The translations under genes and the position numbers were made by a program. From positions 33,649 to 97,648 of IMG/VR virus record IMGVR_UViG_3300045988_017048: a DNA stretch of 64,000 bases. One strand, 5' to 3'. The DNA is from a virus. Under the pieces are notes generated by a model that saw only the letters and a list, made by a program, of their open reading frames with translations, was not told the origin of the DNA and did not search any database. Below are positions 1 to 56,918 of the stretch, piece by piece; the stretch's first letter is position 1; every line of letters begins with the position of its first letter.

Positions 1-125
1 AGGGGACTGTTAATTATGCACGGAACCTCTGTGACTCCTAAGTAATATGACAGAATGTCTGCTTCTGTCACTTTACTTAGAATATCATCAAGGCTCACAG
101 AAGATTTACCTTTGCTGAATGCCAT
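1..125 (-). CDS. partial CDS (first 41 codons; continues past the left window edge), function unknown
   Basis: ATG at 125-123, then an open frame to position 1 (MAFSKGKSSVSLDDILSKVTEADILSYYLGVTEVPCIINSP...). Co-directional with the downstream gene string. Missing from the ORF track because no stop lies in the window. Confidence 0.45.
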   Translation of the reverse strand, partial: MAFSKGKSSVSLDDILSKVTEADILSYYLGVTEVPCIINSP

Positions 126-2667: not shown

Positions 2668-3873
2668 TTACTTGAAAAGGGCTGCAAATTTACTAAATAG
2701 TTTAGTTATCCACAACCCTTTATCTATTTTACTTATTCCATAGCTAAAAAATGACTTAGCTATCTTTGCTCTCATGTCTTGGAGAGATTTATATACGTTC
2801 TGTATCTTAGGGTCATCAGCTTTTGGTAGTTCACTGAAATAGTTGGCAGCTCCATCAAAGTATAAAGCTATTATACCTCCTGGACTTCCACCTCTATTGA
2901 TAAGCACCTCCAAGAATCTACAATTATCCCTTAACTTTGAGATGTCATAACCAAAGTATTCTTTGAGTTCATACTTGAAAGGGCTAAATATACCCAAAGC
3001 TACATTACAATCTCTCATAGTATACTTTGAATCAGCAGCTCCTGCAACTGTAGGTCTTACTCTATTAAGTTTTATGTTCTCAATACCTTCATTCTCAAAG
3101 GCTTGCTGTTGTACAATTACAGGACTAAAGTTATATCTGTTTCTAAGTATAACACAATACTCACTTAATTTGTCAATACTTTGTTTCAAGGACATTCCTC
3201 TCTCAGTATTAGTCAATGATATATGGTCATAGAATATAATTCTATACTCATCTGGGTCATTAGATTCATACCAATCAAAGGCATCCACAGTGGTAACTTC
3301 TCCTAATTCTCCTTTTATAGTTTGCTTCTTAGTGTGTACAATACCATTACTTTCTGCATACTTCCTACATTCATTGTATACTCCTGTAGGGTTTGTAGAT
3401 GCACTAAATATAATATTACTTTCAAAGAATTTAAGAATATCCAAATACTCATCCTTTTTAAGTAAGTCTATTATAGTTTCATCTAACACTTTATTATTCC
3501 TGACAGACCTTAGGTCAGTTGGGCTAATTCTTATCTTGTAGCCACTCAATGTGTAGAGCAGATAAGACATGAATCTTGTCATAATATCCTCAGGAGTTTC
3601 CTCCAAAGGATAATAAAATATCTTAACCCTCAGCTTGTCAGGATTATTATAGGCATAAAGTAGAGTATTATATATGAATAAATAAGATGCTATTTGAGTC
3701 TTAGCTGACTTTGTTGAGCCAGTTACAACATAATACTTACCCTGTTCTACTCCCAAGAAATCCTCACTAAATCTAATAAAGGGGGATGGAATAGAGTTTA
3801 TACCGCCATTGATGACCTTTTTTCTCCTTTCTTCAAGACCACTTAATACTCTGTTTATAAGACTCTTATCCAT
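2668..3873 (-). CDS. RecA-fold replicative helicase, DnaB/gp4-like
   Basis: Walker A-like VVTGSTKSAKTQ, Walker B-like RIIFYDHISL and a VIVQQQ segment resembling DnaB motif H3. 401 aa. Confidence 0.5.
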   Translation of the reverse strand: MDKSLINRVLSGLEERRKKVINGGINSIPSPFIRFSEDFLGVEQGKYYVVTGSTKSAKTQIASYLFIYNTLLYAYNNPDKLRVKIFYYPLEETPEDIMTRFMSYLLYTLSGYKIRISPTDLRSVRNNKVLDETIIDLLKKDEYLDILKFFESNIIFSASTNPTGVYNECRKYAESNGIVHTKKQTIKGELGEVTTVDAFDWYESNDPDEYRIIFYDHISLTNTERGMSLKQSIDKLSEYCVILRNRYNFSPVIVQQQAFENEGIENIKLNRVRPTVAGAADSKYTMRDCNVALGIFSPFKYELKEYFGYDISKLRDNCRFLEVLINRGGSPGGIIALYFDGAANYFSELPKADDPKIQNVYKSLQDMRAKIAKSFFSYGISKIDKGLWITKLFSKFAALFK

Positions 3874-9847: not shown

Positions 9848-9918
9848 AGTGTATCTTAAGACTCGAACCTAACCTCTAACCCAACAGTTAGTGTGCTACC
9901 AATTACACCAAGATACAA
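9848..9918 (-). tRNA. tRNA-like gene with non-canonical anticodon loop (perfect 5-bp stem, 6-nt loop UGUUGG; GUU/Asn-like)
   Basis: Minus strand reads TTGTATC-TT-GGTG-TAATTGGTAG-CACA-CTAAC-TGTTGG-GTTAG-AGG-TTAGG-TTCGAGT-CTTAA-GATACAC. Normal acceptor, D-loop GG and T-arm, but a 6-nt (or 4 bp + 8 nt) anticodon loop and a 3-nt variable loop. Confidence 0.55.
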
Positions 9919-11075: not shown

Positions 11076-11090
11076 ATCTTACTGTTTTAA

Positions 11091-11486
11091 TTATTCGTGT
11101 AAATGTTTTAAGTAATTCTTATCTAAGTCAGGATGTTTGTGTATTAAGAATCTGCAACTTATACACACTATCAGGTGAGCTACACCTTCTGCTGCTATAA
11201 TTCCTATTACAATATCCTGCCACTTAGGAAGTGAATCCCAGCTTGTCAAGAAGAGTACAAGAATGAGCATGGTTATCCAAAAAGTACTGCAATAGATGCA
11301 GAATCCCAATGGATATGCTATAAAATGTAAGAACCTATTGCCACTTTTAACCATAGGTATAAACACTTTACTGTACAAAGGATAGAATATCATATCCTCA
11401 ACCTTCAGGCAATTCCTATAGAATATGCCTAATAGTCCACCTATTACTCCCAATAGCATGAACTCAAACATTAATACATAAAACAT
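11091..11486 (-). CDS. integral membrane protein
   Basis: 131 aa with about four hydrophobic helices. Confidence 0.65.
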   Translation of the reverse strand: MFYVLMFEFMLLGVIGGLLGIFYRNCLKVEDMIFYPLYSKVFIPMVKSGNRFLHFIAYPLGFCIYCSTFWITMLILVLFLTSWDSLPKWQDIVIGIIAAEGVAHLIVCISCRFLIHKHPDLDKNYLKHLHE

Positions 11487-11519
11487 ACTTTTTTTTTAGT
11501 TAATACTAAGATTGTTTTG

Positions 11520-11900
11520 TGGAGCATAGGGGAGTCGAACCCCTGTCTTACCAATCTTTAATAAAAGAATTACACATGCTTACTACTTTTTAATGTGGTT
11601 AGTTACCCACTGGGCTGACTGGATTTACAGCATTTCCACCACCTTATTTTATTGTCCATAAACAAGGAAAAAGTTGAGTTACCTTCTGTGAGACCACAGC
11701 CTATTAATGCTCTTAAAGTCGGACCCTCAGCCTTAGTCTTCATTCAGGCTTTGCACCTTTCTGTTTCCAAGTAAGTGCTACTCAGCCTATTTAGGCAGCA
11801 ACTCTATAAGAAGTATTGCCAGTTATTGTTTTGATGTCTTTCCATCAGTCTTTGCATGTTCTCTTACCAAATAATTAGCAATCAAAACCAAAAATGCCCC
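11520..11900 (-). ncRNA. ssrA: tmRNA (transfer-messenger RNA)
   Basis: 5' GGGGCAU pairs with 3' AUGCUCC, including the G3:U70 wobble. T-arm AGGGG-UUCGACU-CCCCU and discriminator A. No anticodon arm; about 300 nt of internal sequence instead. Tag frame GGC AAU ACU UCU UAU AGA GUU GCU GCC UAA lies at 11820-11791 (GNTSYRVAA). Confidence 0.85.
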
Positions 11901-12118
11901 TAATAAATGGATTCATTTTCTATTGAAAGAATGTCCTAACAAAGTCAAATATTGTTTCTTCTTGAAACATCATTATTAAAGTCACTTAGCTTCCTCTTTA
12001 TATCCCCACATTGAAGCAGTTGCATTTATTAAGTGGTGATAGCTTACCTATCAGCATCACATTTTGCTTTTCTTCAGGTTCCATGCTTAGTAGAAATAGT
12101 GAGCTAAATCCACCATTG

Positions 12119-12190
12119 TATCTCCACTGAGACTCGAACTCAGATATATAGTTTAGAAGACTATTGTTCTATCCCTTGAACTATGGAGAC
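12119..12190 (-). tRNA. tRNA-Arg(TCT)
   Basis: Minus strand: acceptor GTCTCCA/TGGAGAT, AC stem ATAGT/ACTAT, loop CT-TCT-AA, T-arm CTGAG-TTCGAGT-CTCAG. Confidence 0.85.
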
Positions 12191-12308
12191 ATTATAAAAG
12201 AAGACCTATATTCACATACCAGCCTCCTGTAGCAATATTACTATTGCCTGAACTAAAAATCCTTTGCTTAAAAACAATCAAATTGCCTTATATGAGTAAA
12301 TACCTTAG

Positions 12309-12382
12309 TACTCCCTATTGGGCTTGAACCAATGACCTATGGTTTAGGAAACCATTGCTCTATCCAACTGAGCTAAGGGAGC
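12309..12382 (-). tRNA. tRNA-Arg(CCT)
   Basis: Minus strand: acceptor GCTCCCT/AGGGAGT, D-arm GCTC-AGTTGGATA-GAGC, AC stem ATGGT/ACCAT, loop TT-CCT-AA, T-arm ATTGG-TTCAAGC-CCAAT. Confidence 0.85.
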
Positions 12383-12434
12383 AAATACTTCCACCATAGA
12401 CAGTAGAAGTAAACTACACATGCTTATGCCATAA

Positions 12435-12827
12435 CTATTCCTCTACTTTCATACCGAAGGGTGTGCCATCAGTGAAAGTAAATTTTTCAAATACTTGTGC
12501 TAACTTCCACCAACTTCCATTGATAGATATTGGAAGGTCGTTGGCATCTTCTGAACCATCAAATACGTCAATCATTTTTGACCTTTCTGTATTTGTACTA
12601 ATTATCCATCCGAATGGCTGATGTTTCAGCATCTCTTGCCAGCACTCTTCTGCATCCTTGAAAGGTCTGTAGGTAGGCTCTGGCTTGATACGAAACTCTT
12701 GTGTTCCATCAAAGAATGCTATAGCCTCAGCTGAATACCATCTTCCATTCTCCTTATATTGTATTTCTTTTCCTTCGCTAAATGCCTTAATAATAGGCAA
12801 TAGCTTTGCTGCTTCATCTCTTCTCAT
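12435..12827 (-). CDS. hypothetical protein
   Basis: 130-aa ORF. Confidence 0.7.
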   Translation of the reverse strand: MRRDEAAKLLPIIKAFSEGKEIQYKENGRWYSAEAIAFFDGTQEFRIKPEPTYRPFKDAEECWQEMLKHQPFGWIISTNTERSKMIDVFDGSEDANDLPISINGSWWKLAQVFEKFTFTDGTPFGMKVEE

Positions 12828-16358: not shown

Positions 16359-16434
16359 GGAGATATGATAGACTCGAACTATCATTATAACTGCAATTAT
16401 TGAGTTATGTACTAACCATTGTACTAATATCTCC
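16359..16434 (-). tRNA. tRNA-like gene with a 10-nt anticodon loop (identity undetermined)
   Basis: Minus strand reads G-GAGATAT-TA-GTAC-AATGGTTA-GTAC-A-TAACT-CAATAATTGC-AGTTA-TAAT-GATAG-TTCGAGT-CTATC-ATATCTC-C. Every arm is canonical except the anticodon loop (10 nt). The 5' G lies opposite C73, as in His tRNAs. Confidence 0.5.
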
Positions 16435-18623: not shown

Positions 18624-18696
18624 TGCCTCATAGTATAGTTGGTTATTACACGGGATTTTGGCTCCTGTAACATAAGTTCGAGTCTTATTGGGGTAA
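18624..18696 (+). tRNA. tRNA-Gln(TTG)
   Basis: Acceptor TGCCTCA/TGGGGTA, AC stem CGGGA/TCCTG, loop TT-TTG-GC, T-arm ATAAG-TTCGAGT-CTTAT. Confidence 0.85.
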
Positions 18697-18713
18697 CAAT
18701 AATAAAGGTAAAT

Positions 18714-18785
18714 ACCCTCTTAGTTCAATGGATAGAATAAGAGACTTCTAATCTTTTGATATAGGTTCGATTCCTATAGGGGGTA
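18714..18785 (+). tRNA. tRNA-Arg(TCT)
   Basis: Acceptor ACCCTCT/AGGGGGT, AC stem AGAGA/TCTTT, loop CT-TCT-AA, T-arm ATAGG-TTCGATT-CCTAT. Confidence 0.85.
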
Positions 18786-18791
18786 CTAAAT

Positions 18792-18865
18792 GTTGGGTTA
18801 GACGAAGTGGTGAAGTCATCACACTTTCAATGTGAAGATTATGGGTTCGAGTCCCATACCCAATA
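18792..18865 (+). tRNA. tRNA-Glu(TTC)
   Basis: Acceptor GTTGGGT/ACCCAAT, AC stem TCACA/TGTGA, loop CT-TTC-AA, T-arm ATGGG-TTCGAGT-CCCAT. Confidence 0.85.
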
Positions 18866-18871
18866 CAATAT

Positions 18872-18943
18872 AGAGCTATCTACTAATGGACAGGTAACTG
18901 CCCTCTCAAGGCAGAAATTTGGGTTCAATTCCCAATAGCTCTA
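18872..18943 (+). tRNA. tRNA-Glu(CTC)
   Basis: Acceptor AGAGCTA/TAGCTCT, AC stem CTGCC/GGCAG, loop CT-CTC-AA, T-arm TTGGG-TTCAATT-CCCAA. Confidence 0.85.
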
Positions 18944-18949
18944 CAATTT

Positions 18950-19022
18950 AGGGTGTGTAGCATAGTGGTTAATGTGCCTGACTGTCAATTAGGAGATTGG
19001 AGTTCAATTCTCCCACATCCTG
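18950..19022 (+). tRNA. tRNA-Asp(GTC)
   Basis: Acceptor AGGGTGT/ACATCCT, AC stem CCTGA/TTAGG, loop CT-GTC-AA, T-loop TTCAATT. Confidence 0.8.
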
Positions 19023-19048
19023 CTAATCCACCTTTAATCTACTGAAGT

Positions 19049-19072
19049 CCTATCCTACAGAGGTAGGATAGG
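19049..19072. repeat. perfect 10-bp hairpin between tRNA-Asp and tRNA-Ser
   Basis: CCTATCCTAC-AGAG-GTAGGATAGG. Shares the 10-mer CCTATCCTAC with 16951-16960. Confidence 0.8.
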
Positions 19073-19077
19073 CAAAT

Positions 19078-19162
19078 GGAGAGGTAACTCAGTGGGACTG
19101 GGACTTGTCTTGAAAACAATGGGAGCAGTAAAATGCTTGGGGGTCAGGACCTCACCTCTCCG
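19078..19162 (+). tRNA. tRNA-Ser(TGA)
   Basis: Class II: acceptor GGAGAGG/CCTCTCC, loop CT-TGA-AA, variable arm GAGCA-GTAAAA-TGCTT. The T-loop is atypical (GTCAGGA). Confidence 0.75.
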
Positions 19163-19201
19163 CAATAATGGTGTTCTTTGACATGTTGGTGAGGAAAGTA
19201 T

Positions 19202-19287
19202 GGAGAGTAAACTATCAAGGTGATAGTCCTATCTGCTAAATAGTGAGTACCCTAATAAGGTATTTGTTTCGAGTACAATGCTCTCCG
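19202..19287 (+). tRNA. tRNA-Ser(GCT)
   Basis: Class II: acceptor GGAGAGT/GCTCTCC, loop CT-GCT-AA, variable arm GTACC-CTAATAA-GGTAT, T-loop TTCGAGT. Confidence 0.8.
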
Positions 19288-19293
19288 CAATAT

Positions 19294-19366
19294 ATGGGTG
19301 TAATTCAGTAGGTAGAATGCTGGCTTTGGGAGCCAGTTGTCCTTGGTTCGAGTCCAAGTACCCATA
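19294..19366 (+). tRNA. tRNA-Pro(TGG)
   Basis: Acceptor ATGGGTG/TACCCAT, AC stem CTGGC/GCCAG, loop TT-TGG-GA, T-arm CTTGG-TTCGAGT-CCAAG. Confidence 0.85.
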
Positions 19367-19371
19367 CTAAT

Positions 19372-19445
19372 GGGCTTTGTAGTGTAATCAGGTTAGCACA
19401 AGACATTTGCAATGTTTTAGAGGAGTTCAAATCTCACAAGGTCCA
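19372..19445 (+). tRNA. tRNA-Ala(TGC)
   Basis: Acceptor GGGCTTT/AAGGTCC with G3:U70, AC stem AGACA/TGTTT, loop TT-TGC-AA, T-loop TTCAAAT (weak T stem). Confidence 0.75.
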
Positions 19446-19529
19446 CTATGCTTTCATGTTTTCATAATGTTGAGCTTTTGCTTGAACCCTCTTTTGGGTA
19501 GTTAGAGGTTAAAGAAATTACCCTATCAA

Positions 19530-19603
19530 TGCTCTTTAGTTCAGTGGTTTAGAATAGTTCCCTTACAAGGAAAAGGTCATTAGTTCGATTCTAATAGGAG
19601 CAA
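19530..19603 (+). tRNA. tRNA-Val(TAC)
   Basis: Acceptor TGCTCTT/AGGAGCA, loop CT-TAC-AA, T-arm ATTAG-TTCGATT-CTAAT. Confidence 0.85.
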
Positions 19604-19610
19604 CATAAAT

Positions 19611-19682
19611 GGGTCTTTAGTTCAAAGGTCAGAACAAGGGGCTGTTAACCCTTAGATGTAAGTTCGAGTCTTACAGGTCCCG
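19611..19682 (+). tRNA. tRNA-Asn(GTT)
   Basis: Acceptor GGGTCTT/AGGTCCC (one mismatch), AC stem AGGGG/CCCTT, loop CT-GTT-AA, T-arm GTAAG-TTCGAGT-CTTAC. Confidence 0.8.
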
Positions 19683-19791
19683 CAAAAACTTTTGCAAGAA
19701 GTTTAGTCAAGTAGCTTGCAATACTTGATGCCATCATTTCTGAAAAGTCTCTGAGTGCAATAAGGAGGAGTAATCAATGATTTGATGCTTT

Positions 19792-19864
19792 AGCAGGTTA
19801 GAGAAGTAGTAATCTTGCCCCACCCATAATGGGGAGACCAGTGGTGCAAATCCACTACCTGCAA
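19792..19864 (+). tRNA. tRNA(CAT), Met or Ile-lysidine type, with unusual C33 and A1xA72
   Basis: Acceptor AGCAGGT/ACCTGCA (terminal A x A), D-arm GAGA-AGTAGTAA-TCTT with no GG in the loop, AC stem CCCCA/TGGGG, loop CC-CAT-AA, T-arm AGTGG-TGCAAAT-CCACT. Confidence 0.65.
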
Positions 19865-19872
19865 CTATAAAT

Positions 19873-19944
19873 TGGTACTTAGTTTAATGGTAAAACCTCA
19901 GACTCCAAATCTGAAAGATGAGTGTTCGAGTCATTCAGTACCTG
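19873..19944 (+). tRNA. tRNA-Trp(CCA)
   Basis: Acceptor (T)GGTACT/AGTACC(T), AC stem TCAGA/TCTGA, loop CT-CCA-AA, T-arm GAGTG-TTCGAGT-CATTC. Confidence 0.8.
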
Positions 19945-19950
19945 CTATAT

Positions 19951-20022
19951 TGGCATATCTTCTAATGGTCAGGAAGCTACTCTGATAAGGTAGTAATCAA
20001 GGTTCAATTCCTTGTATGCCAA
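19951..20022 (+). tRNA. tRNA-Ile(GAT)
   Basis: Acceptor TGGCATA/TATGCCA, AC stem CTACT/GGTAG, loop CT-GAT-AA, T-arm CAAGG-TTCAATT-CCTTG. Confidence 0.85.
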
Positions 20023-20024
20023 CT

Positions 20025-20444
20025 ATGATTAGAAAATATTTAAGTAGTAGAGGCAAGAGAATAGTTCTTATCTGTAAACATTGTGGCAAGGAATTTGAAA
20101 CCTTGCAACTAAAGGCTAATGCAGGTAGAGAAAAGTTCTGTAGTAGGGAATGTTATAACCAATACAGGAAGGAATGCTGTACCAGCATAAAAGAAAGGAA
20201 CATTTTATATCAGAAAAAGTCTAAATATGGTTTGACAGAAGAGGAATATAAGGGTCTATTTGATGCACAAGGTAATAGATGTTCTATATGTGGGACTTCT
20301 TTTGAAGTTACTAAAGCTTTTGTAGACCATGACCATAAAACAGGAAGGGTAAGAGGATTGCTATGTTCTCAATGCAATACATTACTTGGGATGGCTAAGG
20401 ATAATACTGAGGTATTAGAAGCTGCTATTCAATACCAGAAATAG
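20025..20444 (+). CDS. endonuclease VII-family (T4 gp49-like) nuclease embedded in the tRNA array
   Basis: CSICGTSFEVTKAFVDHDHKTGRVRGLLCSQCNTLLG matches the Endonuclease_7 signature (C.iC...vDHdH.tG.vRGlLC..CN..lG). An N-terminal CxxC...C..C zinc module is also present. The track start (20016) lies inside tRNA-Ile, so the start was moved to the ATG at 20025. Confidence 0.8.
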   Translation: MIRKYLSSRGKRIVLICKHCGKEFETLQLKANAGREKFCSRECYNQYRKECCTSIKERNILYQKKSKYGLTEEEYKGLFDAQGNRCSICGTSFEVTKAFVDHDHKTGRVRGLLCSQCNTLLGMAKDNTEVLEAAIQYQK

Positions 20445-20515
20445 CTGATGTACTTCAATGGTAGAAGACTGCTCTCATAAGGCAGTAGTTGAAAGTTCGA
20501 GTCTTTCTATCAGCA
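20444..20515 (+). tRNA. tRNA-Met(CAT), elongator-like
   Basis: Acceptor GCTGATG/TATCAGC, AC stem CTGCT/GGCAG, loop CT-CAT-AA, T-arm GAAAG-TTCGAGT-CTTTC. Begins on the last base of the upstream stop codon. Confidence 0.8.
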
Positions 20516-20517
20516 CT

Positions 20518-20591
20518 GTGTTAGTAGCTCAGTCAGGTAGAGCAAAGGATTGTGGCTCCTTATGGCATGGGTTCAAATCCCATCTAACACC
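20518..20591 (+). tRNA. tRNA-His(GTG)
   Basis: Acceptor GTGTTAG/CTAACAC (the 5' G can be read as G-1 opposite C73), AC stem AAGGA/TCCTT, loop TT-GTG-GC, T-arm ATGGG-TTCAAAT-CCCAT. Confidence 0.85.
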
Positions 20592-20598
20592 CCAATAT

Positions 20599-20675
20599 AC
20601 TAGCATATCCCCTCTGTCTTATACACAGTAGAAAGGGTAATAGGTCACATGTGGGTTCAATCCCCTCTGCTAGTA
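20599..20675 (+). tRNA. tRNA-like element with a perfect acceptor stem and T-arm but a non-cloverleaf core
   Basis: Acceptor ACTAGCA/TGCTAGT (7/7) and T-arm GTGGG-TTCAATC-CCCTC. The interior holds the hairpin CTCTGT-CTTATAC-ACAG(T)AG (loop reads U-UAU-A) flanked by CCC...GGG. No normal D-arm could be folded. Confidence 0.4.
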
Positions 20676-20679
20676 CTAT

Positions 20680-20753
20680 CTTGGAGTACCAGAGTGGCTA
20701 ATGGCACAGACTGCAAATCTGATGATTCGTGGGTTCAAATCCCACCTCCAAGT
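20680..20753 (+). tRNA. tRNA-Cys(GCA)
   Basis: Acceptor CTTGGAG/CTCCAAG, loop CT-GCA-AA, T-arm GTGGG-TTCAAAT-CCCAC. Confidence 0.85.
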
Positions 20754-20755
20754 CT

Positions 20756-21007
20756 ATGTGTTATATAGATAAACTTATAAAGAACAATACAGGAGTTTCT
20801 TCAAAGAACTTCTTCTTAGTGGCAGTTACCTTAATAGGTTTAATCCTACTATTAGTTCCTGCTGTACTTCTTATAATAGAAGTATATTATAATCATACTA
20901 TACAGACAGACCTTAATGGTCTTGCTGCTTATATAGGTGCTGTTGCTGGAGTATTTGCATCAGCAGGTATTACTAAAGCATGGTCTGAAAAGTATGAAAA
21001 GAAATAA
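20756..21007 (+). CDS. small two-helix membrane protein (holin-like topology)
   Basis: Start trimmed to the ATG at 20756 because the track start lies inside tRNA-Cys. 83 aa with two hydrophobic helices (FFLVAVTLIGLILLLVPAVLLII and LAAYIGAVAGVFASAGI). Confidence 0.55.
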   Translation: MCYIDKLIKNNTGVSSKNFFLVAVTLIGLILLLVPAVLLIIEVYYNHTIQTDLNGLAAYIGAVAGVFASAGITKAWSEKYEKK

Positions 21008-21008
21008 T

Positions 21009-21082
21009 GCTCCTATAGCTGAATTGGTTAAAGCAACAGTCTCTTAAACTGTGGATTCAAGGTTCAAGTCCTTGTGGGGGCA
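21009..21082 (+). tRNA. tRNA-Lys(CTT)
   Basis: Acceptor GCTCCTA/TGGGGGC (G:U-rich), AC stem ACAGT/ACTGT, loop CT-CTT-AA, T-arm CAAGG-TTCAAGT-CCTTG. Confidence 0.8.
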
Positions 21083-21103
21083 CAACCCAACCTTGGCAAA
21101 TAT

Positions 21104-21176
21104 TCCCCCAAAGCATTGATGGTGGATGCTCTGGACTTTTAATCCTGAAAGTAAGGTTCGATTCCTTATGGGGGAA
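21104..21176 (+). tRNA. tRNA-Lys(TTT)
   Basis: Acceptor TCCCCCA/TGGGGGA, D-arm GCAT-TGATGGTGG-ATGC, loop CT-TTT-AA, T-arm TAAGG-TTCGATT-CCTTA. Confidence 0.85.
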
Positions 21177-21210
21177 CATAACATATTATTAACTCCAAAT
21201 TTTTATTGTT

Positions 21211-21318
21211 ATGAAGAAAGTTATTTCATTAATTAAGAGAGGTGCTAAGGCATACTTTAGACAATCTGCTAAGACTTATGCTTGGGCACCTACAGGAACT
21301 ATTCCAGTTGGAATATAG
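21211..21318 (+). CDS. possible 35-aa basic peptide
   Basis: Read by hand: MKKVISLIKRGAKAYFRQSAKTYAWAPTGTIPVGI. It is the only open frame in the 178-nt gap between tRNA-Lys and tRNA-Tyr. Confidence 0.25.
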   Translation: MKKVISLIKRGAKAYFRQSAKTYAWAPTGTIPVGI

Positions 21319-21354
21319 TTCCTTTGATGCTGGAGTGAGTAATAAATATTATAT

Positions 21355-21437
21355 GGGGTAGCTTTAATGTGGTGAATTAGTGTGGACTGTAAATCCACTG
21401 CCTCAGGCTATTTAAGGTTCGATTCCTTTCTGCCCCA
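21355..21437 (+). tRNA. tRNA-Tyr(GTA)
   Basis: Class II: acceptor GGGGTAG/CTGCCCC, AC stem GTGGA/TCCAC, loop CT-GTA-AA, variable arm, T-loop TTCGATT. Confidence 0.85.
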
Positions 21438-21505
21438 CTTCAATAGAAATCTTTGTCCTTGACTTATGGAAAGTGATGTGGGTAGAGACACAAATAAGTC
21501 ATTAT

Positions 21506-21580
21506 GGGTGTTGGGCAGGTATGGTTACATTGCGTAGGTCTGAAAAACCTAAGAATAAAGTTCGATTCTTTGAACACCCA
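21506..21580 (+). tRNA. tRNA-Phe(GAA)
   Basis: Acceptor GGGTGTT/AACACCC, AC stem TAGGT/ACCTA, loop CT-GAA-AA, T-loop TTCGATT. Confidence 0.85.
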
Positions 21581-21586
21581 CTATAT

Positions 21587-21671
21587 ACTCCTGTGGTGGA
21601 ACTGGTAGACACACTTGCCTCAAAAGCAAGAGCTTGAAAAAAGAGTAAGAGTTCAAGTCTCTTCAGGAGTA
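21587..21671 (+). tRNA. tRNA-Leu(CAA)
   Basis: Class II: acceptor ACTCCTG/CAGGAGT, AC stem CTTGC/GCAAG, loop CT-CAA-AA, T-arm AAGAG-TTCAAGT-CTCTT. Confidence 0.85.
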
Positions 21672-21679
21672 CTTATAAT

Positions 21680-21768
21680 GCCCTCTTGGTGGAATTTGGT
21701 AGACACATCTGCCTTAGAAGCAGACATGAAGTAATAGTAGTGTAAGAGTTCAAGTCTCTTAGAGGGTA
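21680..21768 (+). tRNA. tRNA-Leu(TAG)
   Basis: Class II: acceptor GCCCTCT/AGAGGGT, AC stem TCTGC/GCAGA, loop CT-TAG-AA, T-arm AAGAG-TTCAAGT-CTCTT. Confidence 0.85.
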
Positions 21769-21770
21769 CT

Positions 21771-22091
21771 ATGAAAGAGATTAATATTAAATATAGTGAG
21801 TACATTATTAATGTGCTTTTAAGTACCAATAATACTTCTATAACAGACTCTTATAGGATAAGGAGAGTAAAAGACATGGTTAATGTCTTAAAGAAGATAA
21901 GAAACACATGTGATAATTCTTATGCTATACACAAGAGAAGTATATTTGGTATGGTTAATGAATGGAGAGTACATAATCTATTATACTTTTTACATATAAA
22001 AAGGAGAAGGACAGGTACAGTAGATTTAAATATAAATCAGAGTATATGGGCAAAAATAGCTTATACATTGCTCTCTGTATTTTATTTTTAA
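21771..22091 (+). CDS. hypothetical protein
   Basis: 106-aa ORF starting 3 nt after tRNA-Leu. Confidence 0.55.
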   Translation: MKEINIKYSEYIINVLLSTNNTSITDSYRIRRVKDMVNVLKKIRNTCDNSYAIHKRSIFGMVNEWRVHNLLYFLHIKRRRTGTVDLNINQSIWAKIAYTLLSVFYF

Positions 22092-22118
22092 AGAATAAAA
22101 AAAATAAATAGTATTTTA

Positions 22119-22150
22119 CTTGCATATTTCAATTAAAATACTTATCTTTG
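22119..22150 (+). promoter_or_regulatory. Bacteroidota-type promoter (CTTG-N20-TATCTTTG)
   Basis: CTTG at 22119-22122 and TATCTTTG at 22143-22150, 20 nt upstream of the 22171 ATG. Confidence 0.6.
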
Positions 22151-22170
22151 CACCATCAAAATAAGAGAAT

Positions 22171-22617
22171 ATGTTTGAAGAAGATAACCTATTTACTCCA
22201 ATGGAATCAAGTAGAAGTACTGAAGTATCTGGCTCTCAGTTCTTTATTAACTTCTTAAACCAGCTTGAAGGTTGGAAGACCAAGTGTAAGAACTTGCATT
22301 GGGCAGCACCTAAGAAGAATATCCATGTATATCTTGATGAATTTCTTGATATATTGTCAGACTATCAAGATGGTCTTGCAGAAGGATATATGGGAATACT
22401 TGGTAAGATGCAACCTAATGTAATCAAAGGAACTCCAAGTGATGCACTGAATGCTTTTGACTTTATAAGTGAAGTTAAGTCTGCTACTACTGCATTTTAT
22501 GATAAGATTCCTCAAGAGACTATTTATAAAGGTATAGCATCTGAATGTGAGACCTTTATTCAGAATATCAATAAGTATGACTTCTTATTCCACTTATGTG
22601 ATATAAGACCTTATTGA
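22171..22617 (+). CDS. Dps/ferritin-like four-helix-bundle protein (tentative)
   Basis: CKNLHWAAPKKNIHVYLDEFLDILSDYQDGLAEGYMGILG parallels the Dps signature (HW.v.G..F..lHe.fde.y......D..AER...lG). Confidence 0.4.
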   Translation: MFEEDNLFTPMESSRSTEVSGSQFFINFLNQLEGWKTKCKNLHWAAPKKNIHVYLDEFLDILSDYQDGLAEGYMGILGKMQPNVIKGTPSDALNAFDFISEVKSATTAFYDKIPQETIYKGIASECETFIQNINKYDFLFHLCDIRPY

Positions 22618-22625
22618 CAAGAGAT

Positions 22626-22711
22626 GCTCTCATGGTGGAATTGGTAGACACGAGGGACTTAAAATCCCTTGGCCAGAAATGGTTGTCTGGGTTCAACTCC
22701 CAGTGGGAGTA
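22626..22711 (+). tRNA. tRNA-Leu(TAA)
   Basis: Class II: acceptor GCTCTCA/TGGGAGT, AC stem AGGGA/TCCCT, loop CT-TAA-AA, T-arm CTGGG-TTCAACT-CCCAG. Followed by an encoded CCA. Confidence 0.85.
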
Positions 22712-22717
22712 CCATTT

Positions 22718-22791
22718 GCCTCCTTAGTGTTAATGGTTTAGCAAGCCTGTCTTGTAAACAGGAAGAGAGGGTTCAAATCCTTCAGGAGGCT
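22718..22791 (+). tRNA. tRNA-Thr(TGT)
   Basis: Acceptor GCCTCCT/AGGAGGC, AC stem CCTGT/ACAGG, loop CT-TGT-AA, T-arm GAGGG-TTCAAAT-CCTTC. Confidence 0.85.
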
Positions 22792-22797
22792 CAAAGT

Positions 22798-22870
22798 GTA
22801 GGTATGGTGTTAGTGGTTAGCATATGACATTGCCAATGTCAAGGGGTCAGTTCAAATCTGATTATCTACT
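22798..22870 (+). tRNA. tRNA-Gly(GCC)
   Basis: Acceptor GTAGGTA/TATCTAC, AC stem TGACA/TGTCA, loop TT-GCC-AA, T-loop TTCAAAT. Confidence 0.85.
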
Positions 22871-22875
22871 CAAAT

Positions 22876-22947
22876 GCAGGTATAGTATAAAGGTTAGTAT
22901 GTAACACTTCCAATGTTAATGTGTGGGTTCGATTCCCACTATCTGCT
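22876..22947 (+). tRNA. tRNA-Gly(TCC)
   Basis: Acceptor GCAGGTA/TATCTGC, AC stem TAACA/TGTTA, loop CT-TCC-AA, T-arm GTGGG-TTCGATT-CCCAC. Confidence 0.85.
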
Positions 22948-22956
22948 CAGATATAT

Positions 22957-23029
22957 CATGGGGTGATAGCAATGGTAGCTAGCAAGGCTCATAACCTTGA
23001 GGTTGGAGGTTCGAGTCCTCCCCCCGTAA
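22957..23029 (+). tRNA. initiator-like tRNA-fMet(CAT)
   Basis: CATGGGG-TGA-TAGC-AATGGTA-GCTA-G-CAAGG-CTCATAA-CCTTG-AGGTT-GGAGG-TTCGAGT-CCTCC-CCCCGTA-A. Carries the C1xA72 mismatch and a GGGG/CCCC acceptor like bacterial initiators, but only two G:C pairs at the base of the anticodon stem. Confidence 0.7.
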
Positions 23030-23043
23030 CTAAATTACTTTAT

Positions 23044-39439: not shown

Positions 39440-40951
39440 ATGGCTGGAAAATTAGGTAAGTTTCAAATGGTAGGCTTCCAACACTGGAAGGGTCTTACTA
39501 AGGAAAATCACCTTGGTTCTATCTTTCAGTTAGCTCCACAGAAGGCTACGAACCTAATGGTGCAACTGTTGGCTTATTACAGAGGAAAGACACTTGACAC
39601 ATTCCTAAATCAATTCCCAACAAGAGAGTTTGAGGATGATAATGAATACTACTGGGATGTTATTGGTTCTTCAAGAAGAAACATTCCTCTTGTAGAGGCA
39701 AGAGATGAAAATGGTACTGTTGTTACAGATGCCAGTGGTATGGTTGGAGTAGGCACTGCTCCTTTCTATTTAGTATTCCCTGAGGATTGGTTTGCTGATG
39801 GTGAGTACATTGTAGGTAATCTGAATGAAATCTATCAGTTCAGAATACTTGGAGACCCAAGAATGGAGGGTACTAATGCAGTGTATAAGGTAGAGCTTGC
39901 AGGTGGCAACACAGCAGGTGTTCCTGCTGAAAGATTGCTTGCAGGTGAGAGATTCTCAGTTGAAGCTGCATTTGTTGAGAAGGAACTTTCAAGAAAGGTT
40001 GGTGATGTAAGATTTACAAGCCCTGTTTCTATGAGAAATGAGTGGTCTGTAGTAAGAATCCAACACAAGGTTCCAGGTTCTATGTTGAACAAGAAGCTGG
40101 CTGTAGGTATTCCTATTGTTAAGGAAACTGAGGGTAGATATACTAAGTCAGTTGCTACAATGTGGATGCACAATGTAGATTGGGAAGTAGAACAGCAATT
40201 CTCTGAGTACAAGAACAATGCACTTGCATTTGGTAGAAGCAACAGAAATGCCAATGGTGAGTACATGAACTTTGGTAAGTCTGGCAATGTTATTAAGACA
40301 GGTGCTGGTCTATTTGAGCAGATGGAAGTTGCTAATACTATGTATTACAACACATTTAGCTTGAAGCTTCTTGAAGATGCTCTATATGAGCTTTCTGCTT
40401 CTAAGTTAGACTTTGGAGACAGATACTTCTTGATTAAGACTGGTGAGAGAGGTGCTATCCAATTCCATAAGGAAGTACTAAAGACAGTATCAGGTTGGAC
40501 ACAGTTTGTTCTTGACAACAGCTCTATTGGTGTTATTCAAAAGACTCAATCTAAGTTGCACCAAAACTCATTGAGTGCTGGTTTCCAATTTGTTGAGTAT
40601 AAGGCTCCTAATGGTGTTAGAGTTAAGATTGATGTAGACCCATTCTATGATGACCCAGTAAGAAACAAGATACTCCACCCAAATGGAGGTGTTGCCTTCT
40701 CTTACAGATATGATATTATGTACATTGGTACTATGGACCAACCTAATATCTTTAAGTGTAAGATTAAGGGTGACAATGAGTACAGAGGTTATCAGTGGGG
40801 ATTGAGAAACCCATTCACAGGTCAAAAGGGTAATCCTTATATGTCATTTGATGAGGACTCTGCTGTAATTCACAGAATGGCTACTCTTGGCATCTGTGTT
40901 CTTGACCCAACAAGAACTATGTCACTAATCCCTGCAATCCTACAGGGTTAA
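39440..40951 (+). CDS. major capsid protein (by position, size and expression signals)
   Basis: 503 aa. Sits between a consensus promoter and a strong terminator, as expected for the most abundant virion protein. No motif-level proof. Confidence 0.6.
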   Translation: MAGKLGKFQMVGFQHWKGLTKENHLGSIFQLAPQKATNLMVQLLAYYRGKTLDTFLNQFPTREFEDDNEYYWDVIGSSRRNIPLVEARDENGTVVTDASGMVGVGTAPFYLVFPEDWFADGEYIVGNLNEIYQFRILGDPRMEGTNAVYKVELAGGNTAGVPAERLLAGERFSVEAAFVEKELSRKVGDVRFTSPVSMRNEWSVVRIQHKVPGSMLNKKLAVGIPIVKETEGRYTKSVATMWMHNVDWEVEQQFSEYKNNALAFGRSNRNANGEYMNFGKSGNVIKTGAGLFEQMEVANTMYYNTFSLKLLEDALYELSASKLDFGDRYFLIKTGERGAIQFHKEVLKTVSGWTQFVLDNSSIGVIQKTQSKLHQNSLSAGFQFVEYKAPNGVRVKIDVDPFYDDPVRNKILHPNGGVAFSYRYDIMYIGTMDQPNIFKCKIKGDNEYRGYQWGLRNPFTGQKGNPYMSFDEDSAVIHRMATLGICVLDPTRTMSLIPAILQG

Positions 40952-47700: not shown

Positions 47701-50700
47701 ATGCAGAAACAAGTTATTTTCAAAACAAAGGGAATGCAGAGGGACTTATCAGCTTCTGCATTTAACTCTGGATATTCTTATGAAAATAAGAATGTTAGAG
47801 TAATGCCAACTGATGAGAGTACTCTGCTTAGTTTGATAAATGAGAAAGGTAATAAGAAGTCAAGTATAGCAGGGGTAGGGGACTACATCAAAGGTATTCC
47901 TATTGGACAGGCTTTAGTTAATGATGAACTTGTTATATTTACTGCTGGTAATGATAAAGACTCTCTATATACTAATATAAAAGGAGAAGAACTAGAAATT
48001 GATAATATTGCAGCAAATGAATTAACTATTGATATAGATTATCCATTTGAGGATAGAATTTATAAATTATGGTTTAATAATAAAGTTTTAACTGGGGAGA
48101 GATTATTCAGAGGAGACTTAGGATTTAATTATAAGCATCCTATAGAAACTATCTCATTCTATGAGAATACTGATATTAGAAAGGTATATTGGACTGATGG
48201 TTTGAACCAACCAAGAGTAATTAACATAGCTGCTGCATCTGATGTAGTAAGCAAGTGGAATACTGATTCATTCAACTTTGTAAGAACACTTAATCTTAAT
48301 GAGAAAGTGACTATTGAAAGAAATATTGTAGCCAATGGTAGTTTTGCTCCTGGAGTAATACAATATGCCTTCACATACTTTGATAAGTATGGCCAAGAAA
48401 GTAACATATTCTATACTTCTCCACTTTACTACATTTCATATAATAACAGAGGTGCAAGTCCTGAAGATAGAGTAAGTAACAGTTTCAATATAGAGGTGAC
48501 TAATGTAGATAAGAGATTTGACTACATCAGAATATATTCAATACATAGAACAAGCATAAATGCAACTCCAGATGTTAAGAGAGTTGTAGATTTAGCTCCT
48601 CCTACAGGAAGGTCAAATTATAAGCTCAGTAGTTATGAGATTAATCTCCCAGCTAATAAGATGACTATGTATAGAATAGGTAGTGGTGCTGAAAAGACAC
48701 TTGACCAATATGAGCCTTCTCAGTCAGGGTCAAACTATAAGTCTTGGACATTTGATACTAATAAATATTATAGTATAAACTTTGGAGGTGACTATCTGAC
48801 TTGGGATACAGGCACATCATTCACTATTACTATTATCAATGGTAAAGCAAGTATGCAATTGGCTAATAATGGTAATATGACTGGTACTTTCAGTATGGCC
48901 AAAGTTACTTACACTGACAATGGCTTATCAGGAGATTCAGTAGACCCTACTGAGTTATTGTATATAGGAGGTGAAGAAGTAGTATTTGGCACAATGGCTC
49001 AAAAGGATAATACTCTGTTCCTTGGAGACATTAAGACAAAGAGAAAAACTCTCGACTCTACTATCAGAAGCTACTTCAAAGGCAAGAGCATCACCTTCTC
49101 TATCTATAATAAAAGTATAAGTTCTCCAGAAGCCAAGGGCTACTATCCCTACACTAATCAATTAAAGTCTAATTCATATCAATTCAAAACATTCAAATAT
49201 CTTGAATATTATAGATTTGGTATTCAGATGCAACACTATACAGGAAAGTGGTCAGAGCCTATATGGATAAATGATGTTAGAAATACCATTCATATAGATA
49301 CTACTTTCTATGATAGTAGTAATATTGGGTTGCCTGTAGCAGAGTTTACTTTTAATGATTCCAATATAATAAGCAGATTACTAAATCAAGGGTACATTAG
49401 AATAAGACCTGTAGTAGTATATCCAACTATTAATGACAGGGAAGCAATATGTCAAGGTATATTGTGCCCTACTGTATATAATGTATCTGACAGGTATGGC
49501 AATTCACCATTTGCACAATCATCTTGGTTTACGAGACCTAATGCACCATTTGATGAATATAAAGCCTTCCATTATCATCAAAGTGATAAGGGTGCTTGGA
49601 GTGGAGACTGGGTAAAATTAGGACAATTCTTAGGAAATCCATCTGCATATTCAAGGGCAGGTATTATGTCCAATGATAGAACTATAGTTACTTCAGAGGG
49701 AACACAATACAATATTGATGTAGTTAATAAGGGGGCTTGGGCTGAGTTTAGGCATAATAAGCCTATCCCAGGCAATAGTAATAGAAATGCAGAAATCCAA
49801 TGTATTTGGGACCCTCCTTCTGACCCCTATGTTGAGGATACTGCAACTGATTCAGATGTTGCAAGTTGGGTATCTAACAATGCAGAGAATTATTACATTG
49901 ACCAATCAATACTTACCTTCCATTCTCCTGACATAGAGTTTGATAATGAAGTAAGAAGTATTGATACATCAGGATTGAAGTTAAGGATAGTAGGTATGGT
50001 CCCTCTAACTGCATTTGTCTCAGATGTTGATATTCAGACTTCCACTCCTGTTAATAACTTCTATGATAGTTCAGAGTTGCCTGCTGGATTCTATAAGGAG
50101 CCTATAGGTGTGGAAAATGATTTTAGCTATGAAGGGTCTGGAACACATTTTGGTGATTCTCACTTTGGATGGAGAGGATTAATCTCTGGGGCATTCTGGT
50201 TTGATGAATTAACTGCATACAAGAAAGGTACAGGTAATACTGACCATCTTACTACAGGATTTGTTGTATATCCTTGGCACAGAAATGGCTCACTTAATAA
50301 CACTAAGTTTGCTACTGATGGGTATAGGTCAGCTATGCTTGACAAGAAGAAGATGTCTAATATGAGGTATTCATACAAATCAATCTACTTAGATTCAGTT
50401 TACATATGGAATGCTTACATAAAGGGCAATAATATCAGAACTGGCATATCTGGAGTTGCAATATTTGACTCTAATGAAGTCTCACTCATTAGGCTGCCTG
50501 CACAAGAAAACTCAGGTCTCACAGATATTAACTACTATGGTAACATAGATAAGCTTCTTACTATTTCAAGAGTTGGTAGCAAAAAAGATGGTTATCCTAT
50601 TATGACTACTGGAGTTCAAAGTGCAGAGACTAATGCACATACTCTGTTTAGTGGTAGCTATACACAGGTAGATAGTAAATTTACTGACCAAATTACAGGC

Positions 50701-56915: not shown

Positions 56916-56918
56916 GAT

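Follow-up and report, generated by a model that had tools for sequence, protein, structure and literature searches.

An intact tmRNA gene in a crAss-like phage genome and its probable role in ribosome rescue with host SmpB

The window analyzed here is a stretch of 64,000 nucleotides (nt) of viral DNA (IMG/VR record IMGVR_UViG_3300045988_017048, positions 33,649 to 97,648), and its minus strand carries a one-piece transfer-messenger RNA (tmRNA, ssrA) gene at 11520-11900 that measures 381 nt up to the discriminator A. An initial annotation made from the letters alone had proposed this gene, and two independent tools agree with it. ARAGORN called a tmRNA at 11519-11900 (-) with the tag GNTSYRVAA* at gene positions 81-110, which is window 11820-11791 and the same frame as had been read by eye. 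The Rfam model RF00023 matched 11517-11900 (-) significantly, at 76.1 bits against a gathering threshold of 47 (E 9e-28, model positions 1-374 of 374); the overall accuracy of that alignment was 0.53, and it was poor over the middle region. Read on the minus strand, the RNA starts with 5'-GGGGCAUUUUUGGUUUUGAU and ends with AGACAGGGGUUCGACUCCCCUAUGCUCC-A, after which the DNA reads CAA, so that the CCA tail is incompletely encoded, in line with the earlier remark that CCA is not encoded. As had also been described, the two ends pair as a 7-bp acceptor with G3:U70 and discriminator A, the T-arm is of the canonical kind and the anticodon arm is missing. The gene in the window is thus a genuine, intact and intron-less standard tmRNA. 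Its parts are listed below, with positions in the RNA given in brackets.

11520-11900 (-): tmRNA (ssrA), one-piece; from ARAGORN, RF00023, sequence and fold
11894-11900 (-): acceptor 5' strand GGGGCAU (RNA 1-7), including G3 of the G3:U70 alanine identity pair
11520-11527 (-): acceptor 3' strand AUGCUCC (RNA 374-380) and discriminator A (RNA 381)
11528-11544 (-): T-arm AGGGG / loop UUCGACU / CCCCU (RNA 357-373)
RNA 8-19 (-): D-loop-like UUUUGGUUUUGA, directly 5' of helix 2
11854-11881 (-): helix 2, 5' strand (RNA 20-47); from the minimum free energy (MFE) fold and covariation
11548-11579 (-): helix 2, 3' strand (RNA 322-353); from the MFE fold and covariation
11832-11847 (-): hairpin UGAUG-GAAAGA-CAUCA at the usual position of pseudoknot 1 (PK1) (RNA 54-69)
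11791-11820 (-): tag frame GGC AAU ACU UCU UAU AGA GUU GCU GCC UAA with resume codon GGC (RNA 81-110)
11785-11796 (-): helix 5 GCCU / AGGC, with the UAA stop at the stem-loop junction (RNA 105-116)
11753-11778 (-): nearly invariant hairpin GCACUU...AGGUGC, 3' of helix 5 (RNA 123-148)
11645-11752 (-): variable middle module of 108 nt (RNA 149-256), seen in alignments; its fold is only predicted
11595-11644 (-): 3' pseudoknot region
within 11595-11644 (-): H-type pseudoknot of UGGA/UCCA (RNA 263-266/278-281) with GCUG/CAGC (RNA 270-273/284-287)
within 11595-11644 (-): hairpin GUGG/CCAC (RNA 291-294/303-306), 3' of the pseudoknot

Folded on its own, the window RNA adopted a tmRNA architecture at -106.6 kcal/mol (z = -2.83 against dinucleotide shuffles), and the MFE fold contained the 7-bp acceptor, the T-arm, the long helix 2, the hairpin ahead of the tag and the stop codon at helix 5. 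About 300 nt take the place between the two tRNA-like halves. The T-loop UUCGACU is continuous and hence not of the intron form described below. The standard 5'-to-3' order is intact, and the model of the permuted (two-piece) form, RF04321, scored only 19.7 bits against a gathering threshold of 47. An embedded riboswitch or other RNA family, as found in phage Melnitz, was also considered and rejected, since a permissive Rfam scan of 11300-12500 returned only the tmRNA and tRNAs.

Relatives of the gene were collected by two exact-pattern scans of IMG/VR (loci L004-L126), and 57 distinct full-length homologous tmRNAs were extracted, mostly from gut viral contigs of ~90-104 kb. When the window structure was placed on an alignment of 32 non-redundant relatives, 82.5% of cells paired, compared with 41-46% when the 3' partners were slid, and none of 500 shuffles reached the observed pairing or covariation. 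The T-arm was paired in 100% of cells with four of its five pairs changed on both sides, and each of its 15 stem/loop variants pairs 5/5. The 19-bp core of helix 2 was 97.8% paired with 8 compensatory pairs, and its CAUGC/GCAUG end was 97.9% paired. Further compensatory changes were found in the 3' pseudoknot, where UGGA/UCCA was 92% paired and GCUG/CAGC 90% paired (3/4 pairs compensatory), and in the hairpin GUGG/CCAC (88% paired, 4/4 pairs compensatory). Helix 5 was 89.7% paired across the relatives, and the hairpin GCACUU...AGGUGC, at 93%, is kept in all gut relatives. With anchored extraction, the acceptor pairs 7/7 in 57/57 distinct sequences, all of which keep G3:U70 and A73, a conservation that is partly by construction, since the second collection pattern fixed ATGCTCCA (the acceptor 3' strand) and the first did not. 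This extraction corrects the alignment-based acceptor score, which was depressed because MAFFT moved five 5' ends by one column. The G3:U70 pair is G:U in 32/32 aligned sequences, and two relatives carry a compensatory acceptor, GGGGCUA/UAGCUCC, in place of GGGGCAU/AUGCUCC. The covariation analysis that the initial annotation had called for therefore finds the acceptor pairing and the tag frame conserved, with covariation, across related phage contigs.

The tag frame is under constraint at the level of the peptide. Among the ARAGORN calls on gut relatives, the commonest tags were DNTYRVAA (23/55) and GNTSYRVAA (17/55); the others were DNTSYRVAA, GNTSYKVAA, GNTSYRAAA, GNSYRVVA, DNTYKVAA, GNTYRAAA and GTSYKMAA, along with AKSYRMTPALMAA, AEVDYTPVRMAA and AEVDETPVRMAA. 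In one locus (L059), ARAGORN called AEPHLLGNRKVYSHKQRFLA with a start at gene position 111 and not at ~81. The C-termini of the gut tags are [V/M/A/L]AA throughout, with one VVA, and within the phage tags conservation is highest at this hydrophobic-Ala-Ala end, the residues upstream of it being variable. All insertions and deletions within the tag are multiples of three (3, 3, 12 and 15 nt), which keeps the frame, and the third positions change synonymously (GCU/GCA/GCC, AAU/AAC). The stop codon is UAA, replaced by UGA in two sequences. An alternative frame starting from GCA (AILLIELLPK*) was rejected, because it is lost in the relatives that resume at GAC and because the third-position changes fit the frame called by ARAGORN.

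Comparing the phage tag with that of the presumed hosts, the native Bacteroides tag is GETNYALAA, which strongly destabilises green fluorescent protein in Bacteroides (bioRxiv 10.1101/2025.03.18.644028); the pattern that the initial annotation had given for Bacteroidota was accurate. GNTSYRVAA has the same length and shares G1, T3, Y5, A8 and A9 with it, whereas four of the nine positions differ, and in this sense the phage RNA does have a tag of its own, as claimed. A natural tag ending in VAA serves as a destabilising tag in Caulobacter (PMC1233412). Considering the length and layout that GNTSYRVAA shares with the host degron and the VAA end that it shares with the Caulobacter tag, a role as a degron is plausible.

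The relatives fall into size classes of 300-316 nt, 354 nt, 377-393 nt and 439-450 nt. The window tmRNA belongs to the 377-393-nt class, several members of which are 97-98% identical to it, and the 300-316-nt class is typified by the tmRNA of the crAss-like phage cr106_1 (Mahstovirus faecalis; MT774378 / NC_055871). The classes differ in the middle of the molecule: the 108-nt module of the window type is absent from the cr106_1 type and is replaced by unrelated sequence or enlarged in others. The 439-450-nt class (L010, L036, L081, L067, L098, L100, L106, L111 and L116) has a bigger, unrelated middle module, carries the tags DNTYRVAA or GNTYRAAA and received no ARAGORN call. The 354-nt class consists of two identical environmental contigs, L110 and L124. 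These two, together with the environmental viral contigs L099, L102 and L103, end in the same tmRNA 3' motif and have long tags (DEMSTMTYDDLMAFVGADYALAA; AEDLMSFPTSITMGRNTIVENIELAIAG); no proteins in common with the window were detectable in the stored loci of these five, and we do not claim them as crAss-like. At the PK1 site, the 5-bp hairpin UGAUG/CAUCA was 90.6% paired with A:U to U:A and G:U exchanges, and just 33 nt separate helix 2 from the resume codon in the window tmRNA. Within RNA 48-69 (11832-11853), the hexamer before this hairpin and the hexamer of its loop are direct repeats of each other and vary together, being AAAGAC...AAAGAC in the window type and AGAGAC...AGAGAC in the cr106_1 type. 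The two copies cannot pair with each other, and no common partner for them was found across the relatives.

The genome around the gene is that of a phage, as the initial annotation had supposed. Pfam searches identified a crAss major capsid protein at 39440-40951 (763.6 bits), a muzzle protein at 47701-52467 and cargo proteins 1 and 2. The structural block has ~85% nt identity to bajarodcaudo virus 1 and 76-77% to crAss001, Kehishuvirus and cr106_1 (Crassvirales, Steigviridae/Asinivirinae neighbourhood). Judged by these proteins and identities, the window derives from a Crassvirales phage of the Steigviridae neighbourhood. Minus-strand genes from 1 to ~17,000 include a helicase, an SPFH protein, a phosphoribosyltransferase and an HNH endonuclease, and the plus strand holds an array of 27 tRNA genes at 18624-23030 as well as the structural genes. 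The array comprises 26 ARAGORN calls and a tRNA-Thr(UGU) at 22718-22791 detected only by Rfam, and it covers most amino acids; no tRNA-Ser and no suppressor tRNA were seen among the array genes at 18624-23030 (+). Reading of the tag through a suppressor tRNA or recoding was accordingly dismissed, the gene missed by ARAGORN at 22718-22791 being tRNA-Thr(UGU). An Endonuclease VII-family open reading frame (ORF) lies inside the array at 20016-20444 (PF02945, 88 bits). On the minus strand, a tRNA-like gene at 16359-16433 (RF00005, 50.6 bits) has an oversized anticodon loop, for which ARAGORN gave the 4-nt anticodon 'taat', and an ARAGORN 'tRNA-???' at 9849-9917 had no Rfam support. A single ORF at 56916-64000 (+), of more than 2,361 codons, runs past the end of the window; as it follows cargo proteins 1 and 2, it probably encodes a giant virion-packaged crAss-like RNA polymerase.

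The tmRNA lies on the replication-side strand, 217 nt downstream of the nearer of two tRNA-Arg genes, both of which were found by ARAGORN and Rfam.

12118-12190 (-): tRNA-Arg(UCU), 217 nt upstream of the tmRNA
12308-12382 (-): tRNA-Arg(CCU), farther upstream

A same-strand tRNA lies no more than 700 nt upstream of the tmRNA in 53 of 64 related loci, and in 9 of them the distance is only 5-10 nt. These upstream tRNAs suggest tRNA-type co-transcription and processing by RNase P, and in the window tRNA-Arg(UCU) and the tmRNA probably share one such transcription and processing unit. This branch of crAss-like phages thus combines a nearly complete tRNA set with a constrained tmRNA.

The distribution of the gene is patchy. 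Whole copies occurred in only three phages (five records) of a phage collection of 50,697 records, namely cr106_1, Kehishuvirus tikkala and cr128_1; a sixth record matched merely 29 nt at the tmRNA 3' end. Neither crAss001 nor the PhiCrAssBcn isolates carry the gene, and it is also missing from bajarodcaudo virus 1, the closest overall relative, which keeps both tRNA-Arg genes and is without the ~1-kb stretch that holds the tmRNA and a 131-amino-acid (aa) ORF. Based on this absence from close relatives, the tmRNA is an accessory phage gene that is dispensable in nature and not essential. Comparing window 11076-12117 with bajarodcaudo virus 1 (L003), the tmRNA and the adjacent 131-aa ORF (11091-11486) act as one insertion/deletion cassette; in bajarodcaudo virus 1 only 30 nt (3075-3103) lie between tRNA-Arg(UCU) and a conserved 299-aa ORF. 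The 131-aa ORF is homologous to proteins annotated DUF1360 in relatives, and had no Pfam match in the window.

Some copies are unusual. In Kehishuvirus tikkala, a cultured isolate (L002, OQ198717, ~2993-3313, -), the DNTYRVAA tag is intact and the 3' end (...GGGUUCGAGUCCAACCAUCCCCA) is unable to form the T-stem or the full acceptor; G3:C70 stands in place of G3:U70. Possible explanations are a defective copy, recombination or an error in the sequence. On the minus strand of L051, a 91-nt mini gene at 2126-2216 joins the 5' end of the tmRNA and a portion of helix 2 to the T-arm and the 3' strand of the acceptor, with the tag region missing; it could be a deletion or an assembly artefact. In L107 and L121 (-), a second, divergent tmRNA-like 5' end begins ~100 nt past the 3' end of the first gene, which may represent a tandem tmRNA pair.

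To relate the phage RNA to those of its hosts, as the initial annotation had suggested, we used a back-translated GETNYALAA* pattern, which gave 120 Bacteroidota loci from which ARAGORN called 106 tmRNAs of ~395 nt. The window RNA was 48-55% identical to these Bacteroidota tmRNAs (52.8% to that of B. faecis, for example), while the tmRNAs of Bacteroides and Prevotella are 73% identical to each other, and its GC content was 39% against 46% in the host RNA. Recent capture from a host was ruled out by the ~53% identity to more than 100 Bacteroidota tmRNAs. The low identity, the difference in GC content and the shared tRNA-linked position across independent viral contigs show that the gene is not host contamination. 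Judged by its divergence, the tmRNA belongs to a phage lineage that separated long ago and circulates among the crAss-like phages of Bacteroides.

A tmRNA acts together with SmpB, and the initial annotation had seen no SmpB-like ORF in the window. A tblastn search with E. coli SmpB, verified as a query at 194 bits on PF01668, gave a best E of 2.6 in the window, ~36 kb of the genome lying outside it, and no match in 1.14 Mb of related phage loci. The same query matched 73 records of the phage collection at E <= 10, none of them crAss-like, and it found Lak and huge phages at E 1e-12 to 1e-23; five matching records labelled 'uncultured' are huge phages of 630-735 kb. As no phage smpB occurs in the sequence searched, the tmRNA would depend on the SmpB of the host.

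Taken together, we consider it probable, at roughly 70%, that the RNA is an active rescue-and-tag tmRNA that uses host SmpB, alanyl-tRNA synthetase (AlaRS) and EF-Tu during infection. The tmRNA would be transcribed together with the two upstream tRNA-Arg genes in the early, replication-side gene block, and host tRNA enzymes would process it by RNase P cleavage, 3' trimming and CCA addition. Charging by AlaRS through G3:U70 and A73 is established for RNAs with these elements, and by the same route the host AlaRS would load the window tmRNA with alanine. Host SmpB and EF-Tu would then deliver it to ribosomes stalled on broken or stop-less mRNAs, where translation would move to the internal frame, resume at GGC, add (A)GNTSYRVAA and end at UAA. 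The ribosome would be freed, and the hydrophobic-Ala-Ala end would flag the peptide for host proteases. For the phage, the benefit would be that ribosomes stay available in infection when host mRNA is damaged, when host ssrA transcription is possibly off or when host defences cleave RNAs.

Several points weigh against this reading. Expression, charging, SmpB binding, tagging, proteolysis and a fitness benefit are steps that we infer from the sequence, and host SmpB may not fit an RNA only ~53% identical to that of the host. No promoter was recognised, sigma-70-like matches being at shuffle level, and the Bacteroides TAnnTTTG motif is absent within 1 kb upstream of the tmRNA. The absence of the gene from cultured and close relatives, the non-pairing 3' end in tikkala and the pattern-dependent part of the acceptor conservation count on the same side. 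Finally, the PK1 site has a hairpin only, a second-helix partner not having been found by inspection (no exhaustive pseudoknot search was made), and the middle third of the RNA is mosaic among the relatives. These last two features are compatible with activity, because E. coli tmRNA tolerates a stable hairpin in place of PK1 and exchanges among PK2-4 (PMC3968760).

The same features bear on what else the RNA could do. It is unlikely, in our view, that it works as a decoy or inhibitor that titrates host SmpB, EF-Tu or stalled ribosomes and so blocks host trans-translation. Such a role would agree with the lack of a phage smpB in the sequence searched, which means that the RNA must compete for host SmpB, with the reduction of PK1 to a hairpin, with the version in L051 that retains only the tRNA-like domain in 91 nt, and with the report that the tmRNA of phage DS6A, which lacks a coding sequence (CDS), inhibits the endogenous tmRNA in E. 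coli (PMC11915505). However, a decoy needs no translatable tag, yet across indels and synonymous changes the relatives keep the frame, the stop at helix 5 and the [V/M/A/L]AA end; strict conservation also holds for G3:U70 and A73, and tmRNAs with a hairpin for PK1 still tag in E. coli (PMC3968760). The initial annotation had proposed that the RNA could hijack or saturate host trans-translation; the conserved and apparently degron-like end of the tag argues more for ordinary rescue and tagging than for such a decoy. It is likewise improbable that rescue occurs without proteolysis or with another fate of the peptide, the tag (Arg at -4, Val at -3) being a weak degron or some other signal in Bacteroides. 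The differences from GETNYALAA include the residues just before the final AA, which would suit this idea, and some coliphages depend for growth on tmRNA charging and on the release of ribosomes, and not on the degradation tag. Against it, the terminal hydrophobic-Ala-Ala is precisely the part of the tag that is most conserved, and tags ending in VAA act as degrons in Caulobacter (PMC1233412).

Whether the gene is functional at all is a separate matter. A decaying passenger, that is, a captured tmRNA or the remnant of an integration (att) site from which selection has gone, would account for the patchy distribution with absence from the closest relative and for the broken or truncated copies in tikkala, L004 and L051, and temperate elements often carry ssrA 3' fragments (PMC9004378). 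The window copy is full length and not a 3' fragment, though, and compensatory changes occur in four helices with the tag frame kept in sequences down to ~60-70% identity; the far divergence from host ssrA also implies long maintenance within phages, and we regard decay as very unlikely. The joining of a bacterial ssrA fragment to a phage contig is a general possibility in metagenome assemblies, with nothing further to speak for it here. More than 60 independent viral contigs, and phage genomes in GenBank too, have the same gene in its tRNA-linked context, the composition of the gene agrees with that of the phage and its identity to host tmRNA is ~53%, so that an assembly artefact is effectively refuted.

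Beyond active rescue and tagging as such, a bolder and more doubtful reading, which we hold only tentatively, is that Steigviridae-type crAss-like phages keep an anciently diverged tmRNA lineage as a means of takeover or counter-defence, to restore or monopolise ribosome rescue wholly through host SmpB. This lineage would be marked by a hairpin at the PK1 site, by a pseudoknot module that can be swapped, by short [G/D]NT(S)YRVAA tags and, in some members, by introns in the T-loop, and the setting would be one in which host tmRNA supply is shut off or cleaved, or in which RNA-targeting defences make stop-less mRNAs. If so, the most abundant phages of the gut and Bacteroides would be competing for trans-translation as a resource. 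The crAss-like phages rank among the most abundant human gut viruses, and little is understood of how they take over Bacteroides translation. An active RNA would make ribosome rescue part of the phage translation toolkit, and the relatives would form a natural experiment on which tmRNA parts are dispensable, with a hairpin at the PK1 site and exchangeable pseudoknot modules. On the practical side, several GenBank crAss-like genomes (cr128_1, Kehishuvirus tikkala) leave the gene unannotated or overlaid by spurious small ORFs, and standard tools miss intron-split copies.

Among the tmRNAs compared, the Bacteroides ssrA (B. faecis, L162:4039-4433, for example) has the same general plan as the phage RNA. 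Both are one-piece (395 and 381 nt) with G3:U70 and A73, encode CCA incompletely, have an A(A/U)CU-like context before the resume codon and carry a 9-codon tag that starts from GGC and follows a G-x-T-x-Y-x-hydrophobic-A-A layout. They differ in the acceptor, which is GGGGUUG/GGGGCUG in the host and GGGGCAU in the phage, and in the region from helix 2 to the tag, where the host has a true PK1 within 48 nt and the phage a simple hairpin within 33 nt. The downstream pseudoknot ring is also unlike that of the host and is mosaic in the phage, and global identity is ~53%.

The closest known counterpart is the tmRNA of cr106_1, which is annotated 'transfer-messenger RNA, SsrA' and measures 304 nt by ARAGORN (~302 nt), with the tag DNTYRVAA and 74.3 bits on RF00023. 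Over the 150 nt at the 5' end and the 96 nt at the 3' end, the two are 91.6% identical; the acceptor, helix 2 and the PK1-site hairpin are common to both, as is the location on the replication-side strand downstream of tRNA genes. They differ in that the window tmRNA, at 381 nt, has the extra 108-nt middle module (11645-11752), a Gly and not an Asp resume codon and one extra in-frame Ser codon. By homology, the GGGGCAU acceptor, the x-N-T-(S)-Y-R-V-A-A tag and the tRNA-adjacent position, the window tmRNA fits the cr106_1-type Steigviridae clade.

Two relatives of this clade, cr128_1 (L247, MT774392) and L096, have the tmRNA split after the second T-loop nucleotide (UU) by a group I intron, located at L247 1931-2799 (869 nt) and L096 13474-14344 (871 nt); their RF00028 scores are 86-88 bits, and the two introns have 74% identity. 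The 3' exon CGA(A/G)UCCC...AUGCUCCA restores CGAAUCCCUCAUGCUCCA, and ARAGORN misses both split genes. The cr128_1 intron contains a 186-aa ORF on the opposite strand, whose only Pfam match is a zf-FCS zinc finger. Introns at T-loop position 3 have been reported only from the class Bacteroidia (Williams laboratory tmRNA database 2025, PMC11915505); the site in L247 and L096 is this same position, but these introns are located in phage genomes, and the T-loop of the window tmRNA is uninterrupted. The phage introns showed no similarity to host loci in the sample compared. In GenBank, the tmRNA of cr128_1 is unannotated and that of tikkala has two small 'hypothetical' CDS annotated across it.

Phage tmRNAs as such are documented. 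They occur in 402 of 18,146 phage genomes, or 2.3% (PMC9004378), they usually accompany tRNA arrays (PMC7162821; PMC9004378; PMC11915505), and huge phages carry tmRNA together with SmpB (PMC7162821). The novelty implied by the initial annotation was thus too high, with the cr106_1 homologue already annotated and phage tmRNAs on record (PMC7162821; PMC9004378). No paper discussing crAss-like tmRNAs was found in the literature searched. Lak and other huge phages pair tmRNA with SmpB, whereas smpB was found neither in the window nor in crAss-like records. The marine myophage Melnitz has a two-piece tmRNA with a glutamine riboswitch, whereas the window tmRNA is one-piece with no riboswitch found. 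Mycobacteriophage DS6A has a CDS-less tmRNA, which the 91-nt gene of L051 resembles, whereas the tag of the window tmRNA is intact. As such, the novelty of the window tmRNA is modest, and the unusual traits of its lineage are the hairpin in place of PK1, the modular middle and the short tags.

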